From a virus (lineage: Duplodnaviria; Heunggongvirae; Uroviricota; Caudoviricetes): a stretch of DNA of 10,543 nt. Shown here in pieces: positions 2,540 through 10,543 of this stretch (positions are counted from its first letter, which is position 1; each line of letters opens with the position of its first letter). A program made the translations under genes and the position numbers. The notes beneath the pieces are model-generated. The model saw only the letters and a program-made list of their open reading frames with translations. It was not told the origin of the DNA and searched no databases. The stretch covers positions 1 to 10,543 of the IMG/VR virus record IMGVR_UViG_2690316231_000017; one strand, written 5' to 3'.

Positions 2540-2704
2540 TTTTCACGTATACCATCAGAATCGTCCCTAAACTTCAAGTTACTTATGATAATCAAGAAAG
2601 CTGTCGAATGTTGTTGCATAGGCCAAAGTTTCAGGGGAACAAGGCATTCTTAAATCACTTTTCACTACCTGTTTCTAACGCCTCACGCGGCTCGTTGTTC
2701 AACC

Positions 2705-2739
2705 TTGCGGACGATAAAAACCAGTTTTATCGTCCGCAA
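2705..2739. repeat. Perfect palindrome: 15-bp arms with a 5-nt spacer (TTGCGGACGATAAAA-accag-TTTTATCGTCCGCAA)
   Basis: Read directly: 2705-2719 is the exact reverse complement of 2725-2739. It lies 6 nt downstream of the DinI-like stop (2746) and at the boundary where composition switches to AT-rich cargo. No U-tract follows on either strand, so it is not a canonical intrinsic terminator. Confidence 0.7.
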
Positions 2740-2745
2740 CGTTCG

Positions 2746-2979
2746 CTAGTGTAACCAGCTGTCGTCCTCCCAGACCTTCTGCATAATTTTCATCACTTGT
2801 TTTCTTTCTTCGTCCAGTTGCAGTCCGGTCAGTTCCACACCGTTAGAGCTACCTTTGCGGATACGAATTACCGTTTTGGGATACAGGGGGCGCAGATTGC
2901 GGTAAAGCTCGGATTCAAGGGCGTCCAGTGTAGACTGGCTAATCTTCTGCTCTTTATCGATCATTATTTCAATGCGCAT
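2746..2979 (-). CDS. DinI-family protein (77 aa), SOS-regulated
   Basis: Protein MRIEIMIDKEQKISQSTLDALESELYRNLRPLYPK...KIMQKVWEDDSWLH aligns by eye with E. coli DinI (MRIEV..IDALAGELSRR...WESADDW) as recalled from memory. Start refined from the ORF-track 3051 to the ATG at 2979, which has a GAGGTG Shine-Dalgarno 4 nt upstream that overlaps the TGA of the preceding gene. Confidence 0.8.
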   Translation of the reverse strand: MRIEIMIDKEQKISQSTLDALESELYRNLRPLYPKTVIRIRKGSSNGVELTGLQLDEERKQVMKIMQKVWEDDSWLH

Positions 2980-2989
2980 AAAAGTCACC

Positions 2990-3178
2990 TCAGCTGATGA
3001 CATCCATTGAGCGGTTGTATTCATGGGTTCTGATTTTTGCCATGAGTTCATCTGTCAGTTCAGAAACCCACTGCAGGGCCAGCCCCTTCTCTTCATCACT
3101 ACATTCACTAGCCGCTACAAGCTTAAGAAAAAAATCAATGCGCTGGAGCTTCAAAGACTCCAAAAAATAGTCCTGCAT
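2990..3178 (-). CDS. Small SOS-operon protein (62 aa); possible Tum-like antirepressor or unknown function
   Basis: Start refined to the ATG at 3178 (plus 3176-3178 = cat) with a strong AGGAGG Shine-Dalgarno 4 nt upstream; stop TGA at 2990-2992. First gene downstream of the LexA box. No recognisable motif. The position is analogous to the tum region of phage 186, but the size does not match my recollection of Tum (about 146 aa). Confidence 0.55.
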   Translation of the reverse strand: MQDYFLESLKLQRIDFFLKLVAASECSDEEKGLALQWVSELTDELMAKIRTHEYNRSMDVIS

Positions 3179-3220
3179 CTTTCCTCCTATGACACCAAAG
3201 CAATACTGTATACATAACAA

Positions 3221-3245
3221 CTGTTTATATTTACAGTATATAATA
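3221..3245 (-). promoter_or_regulatory. LexA (SOS) box CTGT-N8-ACAG with an overlapping candidate -10; SOS-repressed promoter of the small-protein/DinI operon
   Basis: Plus-strand 3221-3236 = ctgtttatatttacag (CTGT, 8 AT-rich nt, ACAG; palindromic). On the minus strand TATACT (3240..3235) and TATTAT (3245..3240) are -10-like hexamers abutting the box. The box lies 43-58 nt upstream of the ATG at 3178. No convincing -35 found. Confidence 0.65.
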
Positions 3246-3251
3246 ATCTTA

Positions 3252-3282
3252 CTGATGTAAAACGTTTTTTTACGTTCATCAG
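3252..3282 (-). terminator. Candidate hairpin/terminator between the gene A stop and the SOS promoter
   Basis: Inverted repeat ctgatg...catcag (3252-3257 and 3277-3282) enclosing a palindromic AAAACGTTTT-type core. On the minus strand it is followed by AT-rich sequence. Position is consistent with termination of the early operon after A. Confidence 0.3.
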
Positions 3283-3330: not shown

Positions 3331-5745
3331 TTAATACAGATCCCGCCACTTATCATCTTCCTGCAAACGCTGGTTCCGATAGAAGATACGCAGGCCTGCT
3401 CCTGACGGAATACTGCCACCGCGAAGGAGTAAATCGACCTCTTTCTCGCTGCCATCAAATCCTCTGGACTTCAGTTCATAGACGAGCTGCTGTCGCTGAT
3501 GATCTGTAATTCGCTGTTTGTAGTCTCTACGCCGTTTCGGTTTCACCAGGCGTAACCTTGCAGCCAGTTCCCGGCGCTCTTTTTTGTTCATACTGTGCAG
3601 GTAATCGTGCAATTCCTTGTCATCCATGCGGGTGATATCCGTTCTGGTATCCCCATCAGCTGATTTGTCTTTCCCTTGTTGGTACAAATTTTCAGCAAGG
3701 GGACAGTTATTGCCACGAGTCCAAGGGGCGCAAGCGCCCTGGTCGGCTGCCGCCTCCTGAACGTCAACGGCCTTACGAACTATTTTCCACTTCACTGCAT
3801 GAGTGCAGATCTTGCCCTCTGCAATGGGTGACCAGATGCCATAAATACGAATACCGTGATCACCATAGGCGGTCGGCTCTTCGTTGATTTCATAAGCGGT
3901 TCTGATCAAGTGATATTTGCGGGGAACCAGTACGCCGCCCTGCTTCATGATGTAGGTGGCAAAACAACCAGCATCAGCAGCAGCCAGGATGGCATCAAGG
4001 CGCGGGTTATCCAGTACCGGCGCACCTGCTTTTTTGTCACCCTGTTGCCTTGCCGCCTGACCAGCCAGCAATCGCAGTTCACGGTAAGCCTGACGCCCCG
4101 GAATGCCAAAGAAGCGGAATTGCTGAACACGATGCAGAGACGCCCAGGCATTAACGTATTCAGCGTTATCACGCAGGGATTTACCCGTTTCCTTACTGAT
4201 CTCGCCAGCCAGACCACGCCCGTCAATATTCTTACTGATATATTTCGCAATGTAGCTTGTCGGCGTTCCTTTGCGCGGGTTTATCAGCTCAGACTTAAAG
4301 CGTGGCCCCGTGTTATTGCCCAGCTCCTCGCGGTCTTCACGGATGGCAAACTTACGCAACAATGCAGTAATGGCGCGGCGGTCTTTTTTGCGCATGAAAC
4401 ACAACAGGTGCCAGTGAACTGTGCCGTCATGATGCGGCTCAGCCACCCGCACGCCATACCAGCGCAACCCGGCTTTGTGCATAGCCTTACGAAATGCAGC
4501 AAACATGCCGACCAGATAATCGCTGCTTTGTCTTACTGTCGCGTTGGTCCAGGTCGGGTTTGGCCTACCGTTATTTAGCGTGGAATGGAAACGTGACGGA
4601 CAGGTGATGGTGTAGAAAACGGCGCAGTCACCACGCATTTCCGCGATAAGCTCCAGGCCTTTAACACAGGCCATCATCTCGTTGCGGCGATGCGCCGGGT
4701 TGCTGCTGCTGGCGTTTACCACATCCTCCATGTTCAGCGTGTCGCCGTCTTCGTTCACCAGTTCATGAGAACGGAAAAACTCCAGCGACTTACGGCGCTG
4801 CTCACGTTTATGCATCACGGCTTCATAGCTGACATAGGGAGATGCTTTTTTGCTGACCAGGCAGACAGCACGCAACTGCTCTTCCCGCCATTCGCAACGC
4901 ATCTTCCATAATTTCCGATACCACCAGTCGGCGCACAGCATACGCGCCAGCGACCCCGGAATGAGTTCATAGGGCACGGGTTTACGGCGGTTTCTTTTCC
5001 GGCGGAGTTGCTCAAACGCAGGCGGTATGACATCCAGTCGCAGGGTTTCTGCTGCCACCTTTTCCCATGTCTTGCGGATTTCTTCTGGCTTAACGTCATC
5101 GGTGGCATACAAATCACCACAAGCGGCATCAAGGCACATGCTCATATGCGCAGCGACAAGGGTAGACAGGCGCTTCACCTGATCCTGACTCATTTCAGGC
5201 AGGATAAGCAGGCCATCCAGCCCTTCATGGCTTGCCATAAAGCGAAAAGAAGTGGATAGCTGACAGTCGCGGACATGCTCCAGTCGTTCCAGACATGGCT
5301 TAATCGTCTCACGCAAATAGCGGGAATAAGCCTTTGGCCTGCCCAGGCTGCTGAAATATTCAATACGTTGCATCAGCGGCTTGCTGATATGGGAAGGCTG
5401 GGCATTGACGTCAGCCAGAATGACCATGTCTGGATTAAAACGCTGCTGCTCATGCGCCAGCTTTGCCCGGCTAATGAGCTTATCCTGCTCCATTTCGCGC
5501 TGGACAGGATCACGGGATTCATTAAAGAAATAACGCTCCCAGACCTGATCACTCAGTGCCTCGCGGCGCAGTTGTTCCTGCTCGTTATCGGCAGCGTACA
5601 GAGTGATCAGGTTTGAAAGTGCAGAAACCGGCGCAACTTCCGCCGGGTCCTGATAAGGGTTAATAGCCTTTTTCGGGCTGTTCCATGAGAATGCTGCGGC
5701 GACCTCGTTAAAGCCGCTGCAGTTGTTCATATCATCATGGCTCAT
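3331..5745 (-). CDS. A: Phage replication initiation protein A (P2 gpA-like HUH rolling-circle endonuclease), 804 aa
   Basis: 804-aa minus-strand ORF with an HUH motif (HWHLL, residues 444-448) and a paired-tyrosine active-site motif SYIAKYISK (Y498 and Y502, codons at about 4252-4254 and 4240-4242), the arrangement characteristic of the P2 A-protein family. Start ATG overlaps the dam stop (ATGA). Stop TAA at 3331-3333. Confidence 0.9.
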
Positions 5746-8501: not shown

Positions 8502-8525
8502 GATAAAAGTTCACTTGGAGTGACC

Positions 8526-9095
8526 ATGAATTTGGAGAAAGGCGGACGAGGCGCCATAGAGCGCATGGTAGAAGCTTATGGATTCAAGACTCGACAGGCG
8601 TTGTGCGATCATTTAGGAATCTCTAAAAGTACACTCGCCACACGCTACATGCGTGACTCATTCCCAGCAGAATGGGTAATCCAGTGCGCCCTTGAAACAG
8701 GCACCTCGCTTAATTGGCTCACAACCGGGCATGGTTCAAAGCAAACTTCAGGTAATACAAATACTATGGAAGTTGCTAAATATGTATTATCTGATGGGGC
8801 CTTGTGTGAAGACGGTTTTTATATTTTCGATAGAGAATTTCTACCGTCGGCATTCAAGAATCTTTTTGTAATCACAGATAATAATTCTGAATTTATTTGT
8901 GATAAGGAATTTGATGATATACGTGATGGTAAATGGGTAATAAGTATTGATGGCGAAATAACGATCCGTGACATTACTCGTTTACCCGGTGGAAGAATCT
9001 TCGTCGAGGGTGGAAACAGAGCCTTCGAATGTAAGATAGAAGACATTGAAATAATTGGTAAAATTATAAGTTTAACAGTCAAGTATGTTAAATAG
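8526..9095 (+). CDS. cI: Phage 186 CI-like immunity repressor (189 aa)
   Basis: The ORF-track start at 8520 is a GTG; the ATG at 8526 has a GGAG Shine-Dalgarno 5 nt upstream. N-terminal DNA-binding region (EAYGFKTRQALCDHLGISKSTLATRYMRD...CALETGTSLNWLTTGHG) plus a C-terminal domain. Divergent from the apl-like gene and upstream of int, as in 186. Stop TAG at 9093-9095. Confidence 0.7.
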   Translation: MNLEKGGRGAIERMVEAYGFKTRQALCDHLGISKSTLATRYMRDSFPAEWVIQCALETGTSLNWLTTGHGSKQTSGNTNTMEVAKYVLSDGALCEDGFYIFDREFLPSAFKNLFVITDNNSEFICDKEFDDIRDGKWVISIDGEITIRDITRLPGGRIFVEGGNRAFECKIEDIEIIGKIISLTVKYVK

Positions 9096-9110: not shown

Positions 9111-9302
9111 ATGCTTGGTAAGGTATTTTTTGTGGTTTTGTCATGTTCTTTGTTATTAAACCCACTAGCTACCTATGCTAGAAATTATCCCTGCTCAGGG
9201 AAAAAGGGAGGTGTTTCTCACTGTACCTCTGATGGCAAATTCGTTTGCAATGATGGAACTATTAGTAAATCCAAAAAAATCTGTACTAAAAACTCACGAT
9301 AA
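9111..9302 (+). CDS. Small secreted Cys-containing, Lys-rich peptide (63 aa precursor) between cI and int; candidate moron
   Basis: Strong GGAGG Shine-Dalgarno (9101-9105) 5 nt before the ATG at 9111. N-terminal signal-peptide-like sequence ([23 protein letters not shown]) with no lipobox, then an approximately 40-aa mature part with four Cys and many Lys/Gly/Ser. AT-rich. Confidence 0.55.
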
Positions 9303-9437: not shown

Positions 9438-9466
9438 TTGACACTGGTTATACATACAGTAAAAAT
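9438..9466 (+). promoter_or_regulatory. Candidate sigma70 promoter immediately upstream of int
   Basis: Perfect -35 TTGACA at 9438-9443, 17-nt spacer, -10-like AAAAAT at 9461-9466, followed by a GGAGG Shine-Dalgarno (9477-9481) and the int ATG at 9491. Confidence 0.3.
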
Positions 9467-9490: not shown

Positions 9491-10543
9491 ATGGCTGTAC
9501 GAAAACTCACCACAGGAAAATGGCTTTGCGAATGTTACCCCGCCGGACGTAGTGGGCGTCGTGTGCGTAAACAATTCGCCACCAAAGGCGAAGCACTGGC
9601 TTTTGAGCGTCACACGATGGAAGAAACCGAAGCAAAGCCCTGGCTAGGTGAATCAGTGGATCGTCGAACACTGAAAGACGTGGTTGAGCTATGGTTCAAA
9701 CTACATGGTAAATCACTGACTGCTGGGCAGCATGTCTATGACAAATTGCTGCTGATGGTTGACGCTCTGGGCAATCCCCCTGCAACTGATCTAACCTCTA
9801 AAATGTTTGCCCACTATCGAGATAAACGCCTGACAGGTGAGATCTACTTCAGCGAGAAATGGAAGAAAGGAGCAAGCCCGGTCACCATTAATCTGGAGCA
9901 AAGCTATCTAAGTAGTGTTTTTAGCGAACTATCCCGCCTGGGCGAATGGTCGTATCCGAACCCACTGGAGAACATGCGAAAATTCACCATCGCAGAAAAA
10001 GAGATGGCATGGCTTACCCATGAGCAGATTGTTGAATTACTGGCTGATTGCAAACGTCAGGACCCAATTCTGGCACTGGTAGTTAAGATATGCTTAAGCA
10101 CAGGCGCACGCTGGCGAGAAGCCGTAAATCTTACTCGTTCACAGGTGACCAAATACCGAATTACCTTTGTAAGAACGAAGGGGAAGAAAAACAGAAGCAT
10201 CCCTATCAGTAAAGAGCTTTACGAAGAGATCATGGCGCTTGATGGGTTCAATTTCTTCACAGACTGCTATTTTCAATTTTTATCCGTGATGGAAAAAACG
10301 TCTATCGTGCTCCCTCGCGGTCAACTCACACACGTTCTGCGCCATACGTTTGCGGCGCACTTCATGATGTCGGGTGGAAACATTCTGGCCTTACAAAAAA
10401 TTCTCGGACACCACGATATAAAAATGACTATGCGTTACGCACATCTGGCACCGGATCATCTGGAAACGGCGCTCCGTTTCAATCCTCTGGCAACGCTGCC
10501 AAGTGGCGACAAAGTGGCGGCAGCGGTTGGCATTACCCCGTAA
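9491..10543 (+). CDS. int: P2-type tyrosine integrase (site-specific recombinase), 350 aa
   Basis: Start refined from the ORF-track 9413 to the ATG at 9491 (MAVRKLTTGKW..), based on resemblance to the P2 Int N-terminus as recalled and on the upstream Shine-Dalgarno. Conserved catalytic blocks LSTGARWREA, HVLRHTFAAHF and MRYAHL (catalytic Tyr). Stop TAA at 10541-10543, so the gene is complete; attP would lie beyond the window. Confidence 0.9.
   Translation: MAVRKLTTGKWLCECYPAGRSGRRVRKQFATKGEALAFERHTMEETEAKPWLGESVDRRTLKDVVELWFKLHGKSLTAGQHVYDKLLLMVDALGNPPATDLTSKMFAHYRDKRLTGEIYFSEKWKKGASPVTINLEQSYLSSVFSELSRLGEWSYPNPLENMRKFTIAEKEMAWLTHEQIVELLADCKRQDPILALVVKICLSTGARWREAVNLTRSQVTKYRITFVRTKGKKNRSIPISKELYEEIMALDGFNFFTDCYFQFLSVMEKTSIVLPRGQLTHVLRHTFAAHFMMSGGNILALQKILGHHDIKMTMRYAHLAPDHLETALRFNPLATLPSGDKVAAAVGITP

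Follow-up and report, generated by a model that had tools for sequence, protein, structure and literature searches.

The paradigm of phage 186 Tum dates from 1989-1998, and from the early 2000s onwards a split form of its gene has appeared in the PSP3 annotation and in discussions of Fels-2. In phage 186 the inducer is the anti-CI factor Tum, expressed from the LexA-regulated promoter p95 (PMC7708051), and the database record for 186 says of tum "expression repressed by LexA; inhibits CI DNA binding". In Fels-2 and PSP3 tum is split in two, the upstream gene of PSP3 being the antirepressor (Lemire et al. 2011, citing Bunny et al. 2002; PMC3121763), an activity that is documented solely as a personal communication, and for PSP3 (PMC3121763). 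In the PSP3 record the description of tumA reads "similar to 5' end 186 tum; UV induction of prophage", while tumB is given as "similar to dinI and 3' end of 186 tum". In Salmonella LT2, lexA null mutations are lethal owing to induction of Fels-2 (PMC8072944).

The DNA considered here is the whole 10,543-nucleotide stretch of virus record IMGVR_UViG_2690316231_000017 (referred to throughout as the window), which is 96.9% identical to Salmonella phage Fels-2. The segment of interest follows gene A (Pfam Phage_GPA, 3.5e-127), which ends at 3331; the operon starts some 70 nt beyond that point, downstream of gene A just as p95-tum is in 186. What the window holds is an operator, promoter elements, two genes that have conserved homologues and are under purifying selection, and a CI repressor of the 186 type. 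Taken together these features make it very probable that this segment serves a Fels-2-like prophage (186/P2 family, Peduoviridae) as its SOS induction operon, carrying the split form of 186 tum. The preliminary description of this DNA had proposed SOS induction in the style of 186, and the combination of a LexA-boxed operon at the p95-tum position with a 186-type CI supports it. What that description stated about the sequence itself also proved correct on checking. The relevant features, by coordinates and strand, are as follows.

3256-3261, minus strand: -35 hexamer TTTACA of a putative p95-like SOS promoter, recognised by sequence comparison
3219-3238, minus strand: LexA operator box 1, TACTGTAAATATAAACAGTT, overlapping the -10 hexamer TACTGT (3238-3233), heterology index 3.45
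3204-3223, minus strand: second LexA box, colicin-type and overlapping box 1, with a degenerate sequence in the window, CAGTTGTTATGTATACAGTA, recognised by comparison with relatives
2990-3178, minus strand: tumA-like gene whose 62-aa product, homologous to the N-terminal half of 186 Tum, is a putative antirepressor, with Shine-Dalgarno (SD) sequence AGGAGG at 3188-3183
2746-2979, minus strand: tumB/dinI-like gene for a 77-aa DinI-family protein, its SD sequence GAGGTGA overlapping the TGA stop of the tumA-like ORF
2701-2743, minus strand: conserved stem-loop directly after the dinI stop, lacking a T-run (RNAalifold), probably a 3' end or partial terminator
2675-2704, minus strand: conserved unpaired tail GGTTGAACAACGAG-N6-GAGGCGTTAG, recognised by conservation among relatives
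8520-9095, plus strand: 186-type CI immunity repressor (Pfam and 2FJR matches), the putative target of the 62-aa protein

The DNA-damage switch of Fels-2/186-type prophages that is seen here has already been described, is ordinary, and is very common in E. coli: the two-ORF module was found in 1125 of 5426 complete E. coli genomes (about one fifth), and the tumA/dinI-type arrangement is present in several other genera as well. There is little in it that is scientifically new, and the value of the analysis lies mainly in annotation.

Putative promoter and LexA operator

The canonical CTGT-N8-ACAG box that had been noticed from the sequence lies at 3221-3236 and is the sole match within the window, and it overlaps the -10-like hexamer TACTGT. 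The eight fixed bases by themselves are only mildly surprising (0.12 matches expected per window, with at least one match in 23 of 200 shuffles). When the full 20-mer was scored with a matrix, as had been suggested, its heterology index of 3.45 was beaten by only two of the 19 E. coli LexA sites making up the matrix (which themselves score 2.3-11.7), while none of 500 Markov-resampled windows reached that value, the mean of their best scores being 14.25. The operator is kept in place in 11 related phages and in 10 genomes from at least six genera; in the phages, a LexA box stands at the equivalent place before tum or tumA in Fels-2, SopEphi, 813R9, ST437phi4.1, MLG42 and 500465-1, and also in 186, PSP3, ESSI-2, ev015 and YenM_06.16-2. 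An exact search of species-representative genomes for the operator variant found in the window gave no match, and a degenerate operator pattern was used thereafter.

Upstream of the box, TTTACA (3261-3256) is unchanged in seven Fels-2-type relatives despite diverged flanking DNA, and it is separated from TACTGT by 17 nt. This may be compared with 186, for which the record annotates TTCACA and TACTGT, 18 nt apart, as the -35 and -10 elements of p95. A consensus promoter scan made no call for the p95-like promoter, because TACTGT fails the -10 rule used by the scan.

In recognising a single LexA box the preliminary description was correct as far as it went; what it missed is a second, overlapping one. 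This has the form CAGTGGTTAT..TACAGT in all 17 other Fels-2-type sequences read (CAGTGG[T/A]TAT...TACAGT in the relatives, with a heterology index of 8.2-10.3 for the two that were scored). The window differs from all of these by a private G-to-T change (T on the minus strand, hence A at plus-strand position 3219, where each of the 17 others has G on the minus strand), and its own index for this box, 14.45, is at chance level. The 40-nt Fels-2 operator shows 92% identity, over a stretch of 39 nt, to the double SOS operator carried by Col-type plasmids, one such match lying upstream of a colicin-like bacteriocin on pCKO3.

The two genes and their products

The 62-aa ORF (3178-2990) does indeed have the strong ribosome-binding site that had been attributed to it (AGGAGG, at 3188-3183). 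An alignment of its product with 186 Tum, proposed as a check, proved to be obtainable by profile-profile comparison only: BLASTP gave no alignment of the 62-aa protein with either 186 Tum or PSP3 TumA, while hhalign matched the 62-aa family to the 186 Tum N-terminal family over Tum residues 3-44 (42 columns) with 95.4% probability and an E-value of 1.7e-8. The N-terminal half of Tum in turn matches PSP3 TumA with 90.6% probability, and the direct profile match between the 62-aa family and PSP3 TumA is weak (4% probability). Since BLASTP is negative and the direct link to PSP3 TumA is weak, the assignment depends on one profile-profile link together with synteny; it is that link to Tum which justifies calling the 62-aa family a TumA-like antirepressor.

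No database offers a more direct label. The 62-aa protein matched nothing in Pfam, NCBIfam or PADLOC; it falls in PHROG 698, labelled "unknown function", and carries the RefSeq label "hypothetical protein". AlphaFold models it as a helical hairpin (pLDDT 87.9), for which Foldseek against the PDB returned only generic helical hairpins at E-values above 0.8, an uninformative result, and a sequence search of the PDB gave no match even at an E-value of 10. The family comprises 66 clusters at 50% identity, in which W37 is invariant and M1, D3, E7, R13, I14, C26, A34, E40, L41 and L45 are at least 90% conserved. The window protein is 98.4% identical to Fels-2 STM2728, and the ORF, whose conservation among related prophages had been raised as a question, is conserved with a dN/dS of 0.07-0.10.

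For the second ORF the earlier assignment to the DinI family is borne out clearly: the product matches Pfam PF06183 over profile positions 1-63 of 63 (E-value 6.6e-23, 81.3 bits against a cut-off of 24.2). It is 41% identical to residues 71-145 of 186 Tum (E-value 3e-24), 77.9% identical to PSP3 TumB and 100% identical to Fels-2 STM2726.1, and its dN/dS is 0-0.11. It shares its Pfam family with the chromosomal DinI of E. coli, the structure of which (1GHH) it matches over residues 1-75 at an E-value of 2.7e-6, but it scores below the equivalog cut-off of the NCBIfam model for chromosomal DinI, NF007893 (42.7 against 111 bits). The 77-aa protein belongs with the TumB-type phage paralogues and is not an equivalog of chromosomal DinI.

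Given that both parts form one polypeptide in 186, it might be asked whether the 62-aa and DinI-like proteins associate non-covalently as a two-piece Tum of which neither part works alone. The two genes are adjacent, 3-12 nt apart, in nearly all phages of the Fels-2 and PSP3 types, and purifying selection is equally strong on both, all of which would suit such an arrangement. However, homologues of the 62-aa gene that have a LexA box stand without dinI in ESSI-2 and ESSI2_ev015, so that the gene appears able to act independently, and the Yersinia phage YenM_06.16-2 encodes a 60-aa "tum protein" with no adjacent gene annotated as dinI; many 186-type "Tum proteins" of 63-78 aa were also present among the matches (as judged from protein records alone). 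The upstream gene of PSP3 is reported to be an antirepressor by itself (PMC3121763), for 186 the annotation calls the truncated, DinI-only products modulators and not antirepressors, and in the Gifsy phages the gene order is reversed and deletion of dinI had no significant effect on induction (PMC3121763). On this evidence a two-piece Tum seems improbable, and the 62-aa protein is better regarded as the antirepressor in its own right.

The CI repressor and the proposed course of induction

The window encodes a CI repressor of the 186 type, which matches Phage_CI_repr (2.8e-33) and Phage_CI_C (2.7e-27) in Pfam and the 186 CI structure 2FJR at an E-value of 2.6e-31. Against Peptidase_S24 it scores under the cut-off (16.3 against 23.3 bits), and because CI thus has no recognisable autocleavage domain, another inducer is needed.

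By analogy with 186, Fels-2 and PSP3, the course of induction would be as follows. In the lysogen, host LexA bound to the operator overlapping the p95-like -10 element would keep the operon off. Upon DNA damage, RecA would become active, LexA would cleave itself and the operon would be transcribed. The 62-aa helical-hairpin protein would then bind the 186-type CI stoichiometrically, the likely contact being the N-terminal DNA-binding domain of CI, which would lose its hold on its operators, so that the early lytic operon, running from apl and cII to gene A, would be derepressed. The DinI-family protein, translated from its own SD sequence, may meanwhile bind RecA filaments and tune the SOS signal, while being dispensable for derepression itself.

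The choice of CI as the target deserves some scrutiny, given that the 62-aa protein recurs with 100% identity in phages that share just 39-56% identity with the window over CI as a whole; an identical protein beside so divergent a CI is unusual for a specific antirepressor-repressor pair. It could be argued on these grounds that the operon, while SOS-controlled, encodes a 62-aa protein that modulates LexA, RecA or the downstream cargo, with induction proceeding by some other route, and both the lack of any database function and the generic fold with no significant structural neighbour speak for this. The divergence is unevenly distributed, however. Among 10 phage sequences, which are not independent of one another, TumA identity tracks identity in the CI N-terminal domain: phages with TumA at least 88% identical have a CI N-terminal domain 69-79% identical to that of the window, the corresponding figures for ESSI-2, PSP3 and 186 being 60%, 49% and 42%, while the remainder of CI is 23-41% identical throughout the 10 phages. 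The CI N-terminal domain is therefore conserved in exactly those phages that share the 62-aa protein. Furthermore, the 62-aa protein is homologous to the very part of Tum that separates the antirepressor from the DinI-only truncations, a CI of this kind requires a separate inducer, and the lethality of lexA null mutations maps to Fels-2, a carrier of the same operon. A different target is accordingly very improbable, and action on CI is the reading retained here.

As for the arrangement of the genes, it had been observed that the two ORFs lie in different frames 10 bp apart (the gap is 10 nt and the frame offset 1), and that their lengths of 62 and 77 aa sum to nearly the length given for 186 Tum, about 146 aa, which is correct. 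Of the possibilities raised on this basis, a split tum-like gene is the one that holds: the two ORFs together match Tum, and PSP3 annotates the corresponding pair as tumA/tumB. As there is no single 146-aa polypeptide, the operon is classed as the split tumA/tumB variant and not as 186 tum itself. That the two are genuine genes had also been argued, and each has its own conserved SD sequence and ATG and is under purifying selection. A frameshifted tum, by contrast, is contradicted by the relatives, among which gaps of 3, 9, 10, 11 or 12 nt and frame offsets of 1, 2 and 0 occur; together with the dN/dS of 0.04-0.11 for both ORFs this points to a stable two-cistron arrangement and to two genes, not one that has shifted frame. 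That a frameshift or nonsense mutation has put tum out of action, or that tum needs programmed frameshifting to yield the full-length product, is hence barely credible, even though the summed lengths approach 146 aa and the dinI frame has no stop in the 25 codons preceding its ATG, where it overlaps the end of the 62-aa ORF, since no single shift is conserved among relatives, each ORF has its own start signals and a low dN/dS, and the arrangement recurs in so many E. coli genomes and in several genera (programmed frameshifting in particular was rejected on account of the variable frame offsets). The sole terminator called by the consensus scan is a hairpin between the two ORFs that contains the SD sequence, and was discounted.

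The downstream end and comparison with known systems

The stem-loop that follows dinI is at the position of t95a in 186. Its RNAalifold consensus for nine relatives has 18 pairs, nine of them with compensatory changes, and its minimum free energy is -33.8 kcal/mol (z = -4.57); Rfam, searched at E-values up to 1, gave one chance miRNA match in all and nothing for this hairpin. The unpaired tail beyond it is nearly invariant in the window, PSP3, SopEphi, 813R9, ST437phi4.1, MLG42 and five genomic loci, and cannot be coding, given an indel among these sequences. Megablast matches to E. coli phages end at window position 2675, where variable cargo begins. The cargo downstream of the operon is of the defence type, with PDC-M18 genes beyond the hairpin.

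At the other side of the window, a conserved predicted LexA box occupies the spacer of another promoter, that of int (9438-9466). A literature search, using narrow terms, found no paper on a LexA-regulated P2-like integrase.

These observations invite a wider reading, namely that LexA is wired in at two points (the colicin-type operator of tumA and the int-promoter box) while one antirepressor serves across immunity types. This is a tentative proposal, and rather doubtful. If it were true, the private G-to-T change would weaken the double operator, and leakier spontaneous induction would be predicted; the box in the int promoter would allow SOS to license excision directly, besides the inactivation of CI; and a 62-aa protein recognising the conserved CI N-terminal domain could cross-induce heteroimmune Fels-2-type prophages within one damaged cell. 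On a more practical level, a family that has no name and no Pfam or NCBIfam model sits in about one fifth of complete E. coli genomes. Prophages that carry this operon should be SOS-inducible, defence cargo included, and DNA-damaging antibiotics and other SOS-inducing conditions would therefore be expected to mobilise them.

Amongst known systems, one likeness is to the operons of colicins, the double SOS operator of which comprises two overlapping LexA boxes as does that of the Fels-2 type; here, however, the operator controls a prophage antirepressor and not a bacteriocin, and the second box of the window has lost its key G. The Gifsy-1, -2 and -3 operons (GfoA, GftA and GfhA) share the general scheme, a LexA-repressed prophage operon in which a DinI homologue is paired with a small antirepressor of an uncleaved repressor (PMC3121763), but have dinI first, belong to lambdoid phages and involve another repressor family, and no sequence similarity was found between their antirepressors and the window proteins.

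The window resembles p95-tum of phage 186 in having a LexA operator over a TACTGT -10 element, in its position downstream of gene A and in its 186-type CI partner, and resembles Tum in combining an N-terminal antirepressor segment with a C-terminal DinI-like one. It differs in having two genes where 186 has one polypeptide with internal starts, in having a U-less covarying hairpin followed by defence cargo where 186 has the intrinsic terminator t95a followed by orf97, and in belonging to the Fels-2 group, which has two overlapping LexA boxes where 186 has a single one (index 1.92). The tumA/tumB pair of PSP3 has the same position, LexA box and layout, but its TumA is of a different sequence type, tied to the window protein only via the N-terminal half of 186 Tum, and its split is in frame with a gap of 3 nt. 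In Fels-2, finally, STM2728 and STM2726.1 occupy the same place after gene A, with the same LexA box, the same two-cistron layout and the same 10-nt gap and frame offset of 1, and their products share 98.4% and 100% identity with those of the window; the differences are the C-terminal part of CI, which is 24% identical, and, in the second LexA box, the G-to-T change of the window.

The SOS operon and its operator

The window corresponds to the early region of a P2/186-family prophage, and its SOS operon lies directly downstream of replication gene A on the same (minus) strand.

Features of the early region and the SOS operon
8520-9095, +: 186-type CI repressor
9111-9302, +: apparent moron, 63 aa
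9438-9466, +: promoter-like TTGACA-17 nt-AAAAAT, shortly before the int start (9491)
9491-10543, +: int
3331-5745, -: replication gene A (Pfam Phage_GPA, 3.5e-127)
minus strand: cII (Pfam Phage_CP76)
minus strand: apl/cox-like gene, further small genes and Dam methylase
3178-2990, -: 62-aa ORF, its ATG following AGGAGG (3188-3183)
2979-2746, -: 77-aa ORF, DinI family (Pfam E 6.6e-23)
2743-2701, -: stem-loop directly after the dinI stop codon (MFE -33.8 kcal/mol, z = -4.57)
to 2675, -: unpaired tail, GGTTGAACAACGAG-N6-GAGGCGTTAG, 30 nt, nearly invariant

The preliminary description had proposed a LexA box ahead of two small genes, each with a Shine-Dalgarno sequence, the second of the DinI family, and all of these elements are present. 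The CTGT-N8-ACAG motif at 3221-3236 is the sole match in the window; by itself such a match is not very improbable (0.12 expected per window, and at least one in 23 of 200 shuffles). The full site TACTGTAAATATAAACAGTT (box 1, 3238-3219) was scored by heterology index, in which a low value marks a better LexA site, using a matrix of 20 positions from 19 E. coli operators; its value of 3.45, which is approximate, compares with 2.3-11.7 for the training sites, and in 500 first-order Markov resamples of the window no site fell below 8.2. Box 1 opens with TACTGT, and TTTACA (3261-3256) stands 17 nt before it; the phage 186 record gives TTCACA as -35 and TACTGT as -10 of the SOS promoter p95, and the 186 LexA site begins at the same TACTGT.

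In all other Fels-2-type sequences read (six phages including Fels-2 and SopEphi, ten species genomes and E. coli UMNK88) a second box, CAGTGG[T/A]TAT...TACAGT, follows and overlaps the first. This is a colicin-type arrangement: matches to the 40-nt Fels-2 operator, at ~92% over 39 nt, occur in more than a thousand Col-type plasmids, and in pCKO3 the matching operator stands between a TTGACA promoter and the gene for a colicin-like tRNase bacteriocin. In the window, however, box 2 (3204-3223, minus strand) is damaged by a private G-to-T change (plus-strand A at 3219) at the G of the CTG motif in its left half-site, and its heterology index, 14.45, is at chance level. The UMNK88 prophage, the closest relative (96-99% identity over 8.8 kb), retains the G. 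Owing to this change the window operator may bind only one LexA dimer, and repression may be looser.

Two ORFs corresponding to the halves of Tum

The 800 bases round the operon share 96.9% identity with Salmonella phage Fels-2, and 90-97% with about fifty P2-like phages from Klebsiella, Escherichia and Salmonella. The first ORF corresponds to STM2728 of Fels-2, labelled ‘hypothetical’, and the second to STM2726.1, labelled ‘DinI family; similar to TumB of PSP3’. The PSP3 record calls its pair tumA, noted as ‘similar to 5' end 186 tum; UV induction of prophage’, and tumB, noted as ‘similar to dinI and 3' end of 186 tum’. The 186 record, in contrast to the two ORFs here, has one 146-aa tum gene with internal starts, whose full-length product ‘inhibits CI DNA binding’ and whose DinI-like truncations ‘modulate SOS induction’.

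Residues 71-145 of Tum align with the DinI ORF at 41% identity (E 3e-24). Because BLASTP of the 62-aa protein against Tum and against PSP3 TumA found no alignment, the three families (62-aa, Tum N-terminal and PSP3 TumA) were collected and compared as profiles. The 62-aa family matched the Tum N-terminal family with a probability of 95.4% (E 1.7e-8, columns 3-44 of both), PSP3 TumA matched the latter with 90.6%, and the direct match between the 62-aa family and PSP3 TumA was weak, in unchanged register; distant members of the 62-aa family also bridge visibly to Tum (e.g. LALQRIELVARLVADSECGDADKELAINWIAELT against MIERVEMIARLTAEGTCQERDREIALNLIAEIA). Judged by these profile links together with the DinI alignment, each ORF is one half of Tum, which had been suspected from the first.

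That the gene might be damaged, or frameshifted as was also suggested, is not borne out. The stop TGA of the 62-aa ORF lies inside GAGGTGA and the 77-aa ORF begins 10 nt on in another frame, but among relatives the gap and frame offset vary (10 nt/1, 11 nt/2, 12 nt/0, and 3 nt/0 in PSP3; 9-12 nt in ten genomes of other genera) while each cistron keeps its Shine-Dalgarno sequence and start codon, which rules out a conserved programmed frameshift. A recent pseudogene is ruled out by the same retention and by dN/dS of 0.04-0.11 for both ORFs at synonymous divergences of 0.5-2.4 (against SopEphi, ST437-OXA245phi4.1 and MLG42); the 62-aa ORF is conserved among related prophages. Homologues with their own LexA box and no dinI occur in Cronobacter phage ESSI-2 and in ESSI2_ev015, and a Yersinia phage has a 60-aa ‘tum protein’ with no adjacent dinI-annotated gene, which indicates that the putative antirepressor part works as an independent unit.

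An AlphaFold model of the 62-aa protein from 32 homologues predicts two helices (2-22 and 28-61) that form a hairpin (pLDDT 87.9), with the conserved Cys26 in the turn; a search for structural neighbours of the model gave nothing significant. In several distant homologues (among P0147, P0152, P0155, P0172, P0177 and P0181) the C-terminus is a glycine-rich tail whose last residues are LQ or FQ, e.g. NPQNGGESGRGALQ; this tail is absent from the window protein.

The CI repressor as the probable target

In architecture the window CI is of the 186 kind, and it received no autopeptidase call; it should therefore need a Tum-type inducer. The original reading of 186-style induction is essentially right. 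Cleavage of LexA would turn the operon on, the 62-aa protein would inactivate CI, and the DinI-like protein would modulate RecA filaments. We conclude that the module probably operates like known Tum systems; its own regulation and the binding events are inferred.

The 62-aa protein is 98-100% identical across phages in which CI as a whole shares only 39-56% identity with that of the window. When eleven CI proteins were aligned and split after the helix-turn-helix domain, the N-terminal domain was 69-79% identical to the window's in all phages with its TumA type, 60% in ESSI-2 (TumA 41% identical), and 49% and 42% in PSP3 and 186, which have other TumA types; the remainder was 23-41% identical in every phage compared. 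This pattern, from a small and phylogenetically non-independent sample, fits a TumA-type antirepressor that contacts the CI DNA-binding domain, and such contact predicts cross-induction between prophages sharing a TumA type.

Separately, the best identity of the window CI (8520-9095, +) to any CI of the phage collection is 55.6%, and its last ~20 residues lie outside all tblastn matches listed.

Flanking elements, cargo and occurrence

The 63-aa ORF between cI and int looks like an inserted moron. Its N-terminus resembles a signal peptide, it contains several cysteines, and its database matches are NCBIfam PRK10040 (‘hypothetical protein’, 1.3e-33) and PHROG 6000, a family of unknown function. 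Beyond this ORF, the spacer of the int promoter is filled by a strong LexA-like 20-mer, CACTGGTTATACATACAGTA (9442-9461, +; heterology index 4.71, reached by none of 500 resamples), with a Shine-Dalgarno sequence and the int ATG downstream. CTGG...ACAG and the -35 are conserved in 813R9, KP12, 4LV2017 and UMNK88, the A/T spacer being variable, and the segment is carried by 959 of 5426 E. coli genomes. This suggests that int expression is SOS-controlled where cargo lies between cI and int; a narrow literature search found no published account of a LexA-boxed int promoter.

At the other end, the post-dinI stem-loop has compensatory changes in 9 of 18 pairs (nine relatives), has no T-run and found no family in Rfam; that G-U pairs outnumber A-C mismatches suggests that it is read on the tum strand. 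Stem-loop and tail (2675-2743) may act as a terminator or stabiliser or mark a recombination boundary; at the same position 186 has a partial terminator, t95a, and then orf97. Past 2675 similarity between phages ends and variable cargo starts, at a P2-type hotspot from dinI to the portal gene (in UMNK88, cargo is followed by portal and terminase genes).

Cargo genes
1340-2539, -: candidate defence gene PDC-M18A (PADLOC E 5.9e-31)
802-1338, -: candidate defence gene PDC-M18B (PADLOC E 2.8e-18)
61-501, - (from 501 leftwards): N-terminus of a GmrSD/HEC-06-type DUF262 nuclease (Pfam GmrSD_N, 5.4e-26)

Read-through from the SOS promoter, co-transcribing this same-strand cargo after DNA damage, is possible.

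The split module occurs in 1125 of 5426 complete E. coli genomes, where its genes are labelled ‘hypothetical protein’ and ‘DinI-like family protein’, and also in Serratia, Citrobacter, Enterobacter, Kluyvera and Erwiniaceae. The tum of Fels-2 and PSP3 was described as a split gene by Lemire et al., by way of 2002 work and a personal communication (PMC3121763), and lexA null mutations are lethal in Salmonella LT2 owing to Fels-2 induction (PMC8072944). Small candidate additions are the double operator with its single-nucleotide change, the LexA box of the int promoter and the covarying hairpin; the main finding is correct but holds nothing new. The module is a textbook-type system, in the split form already known.
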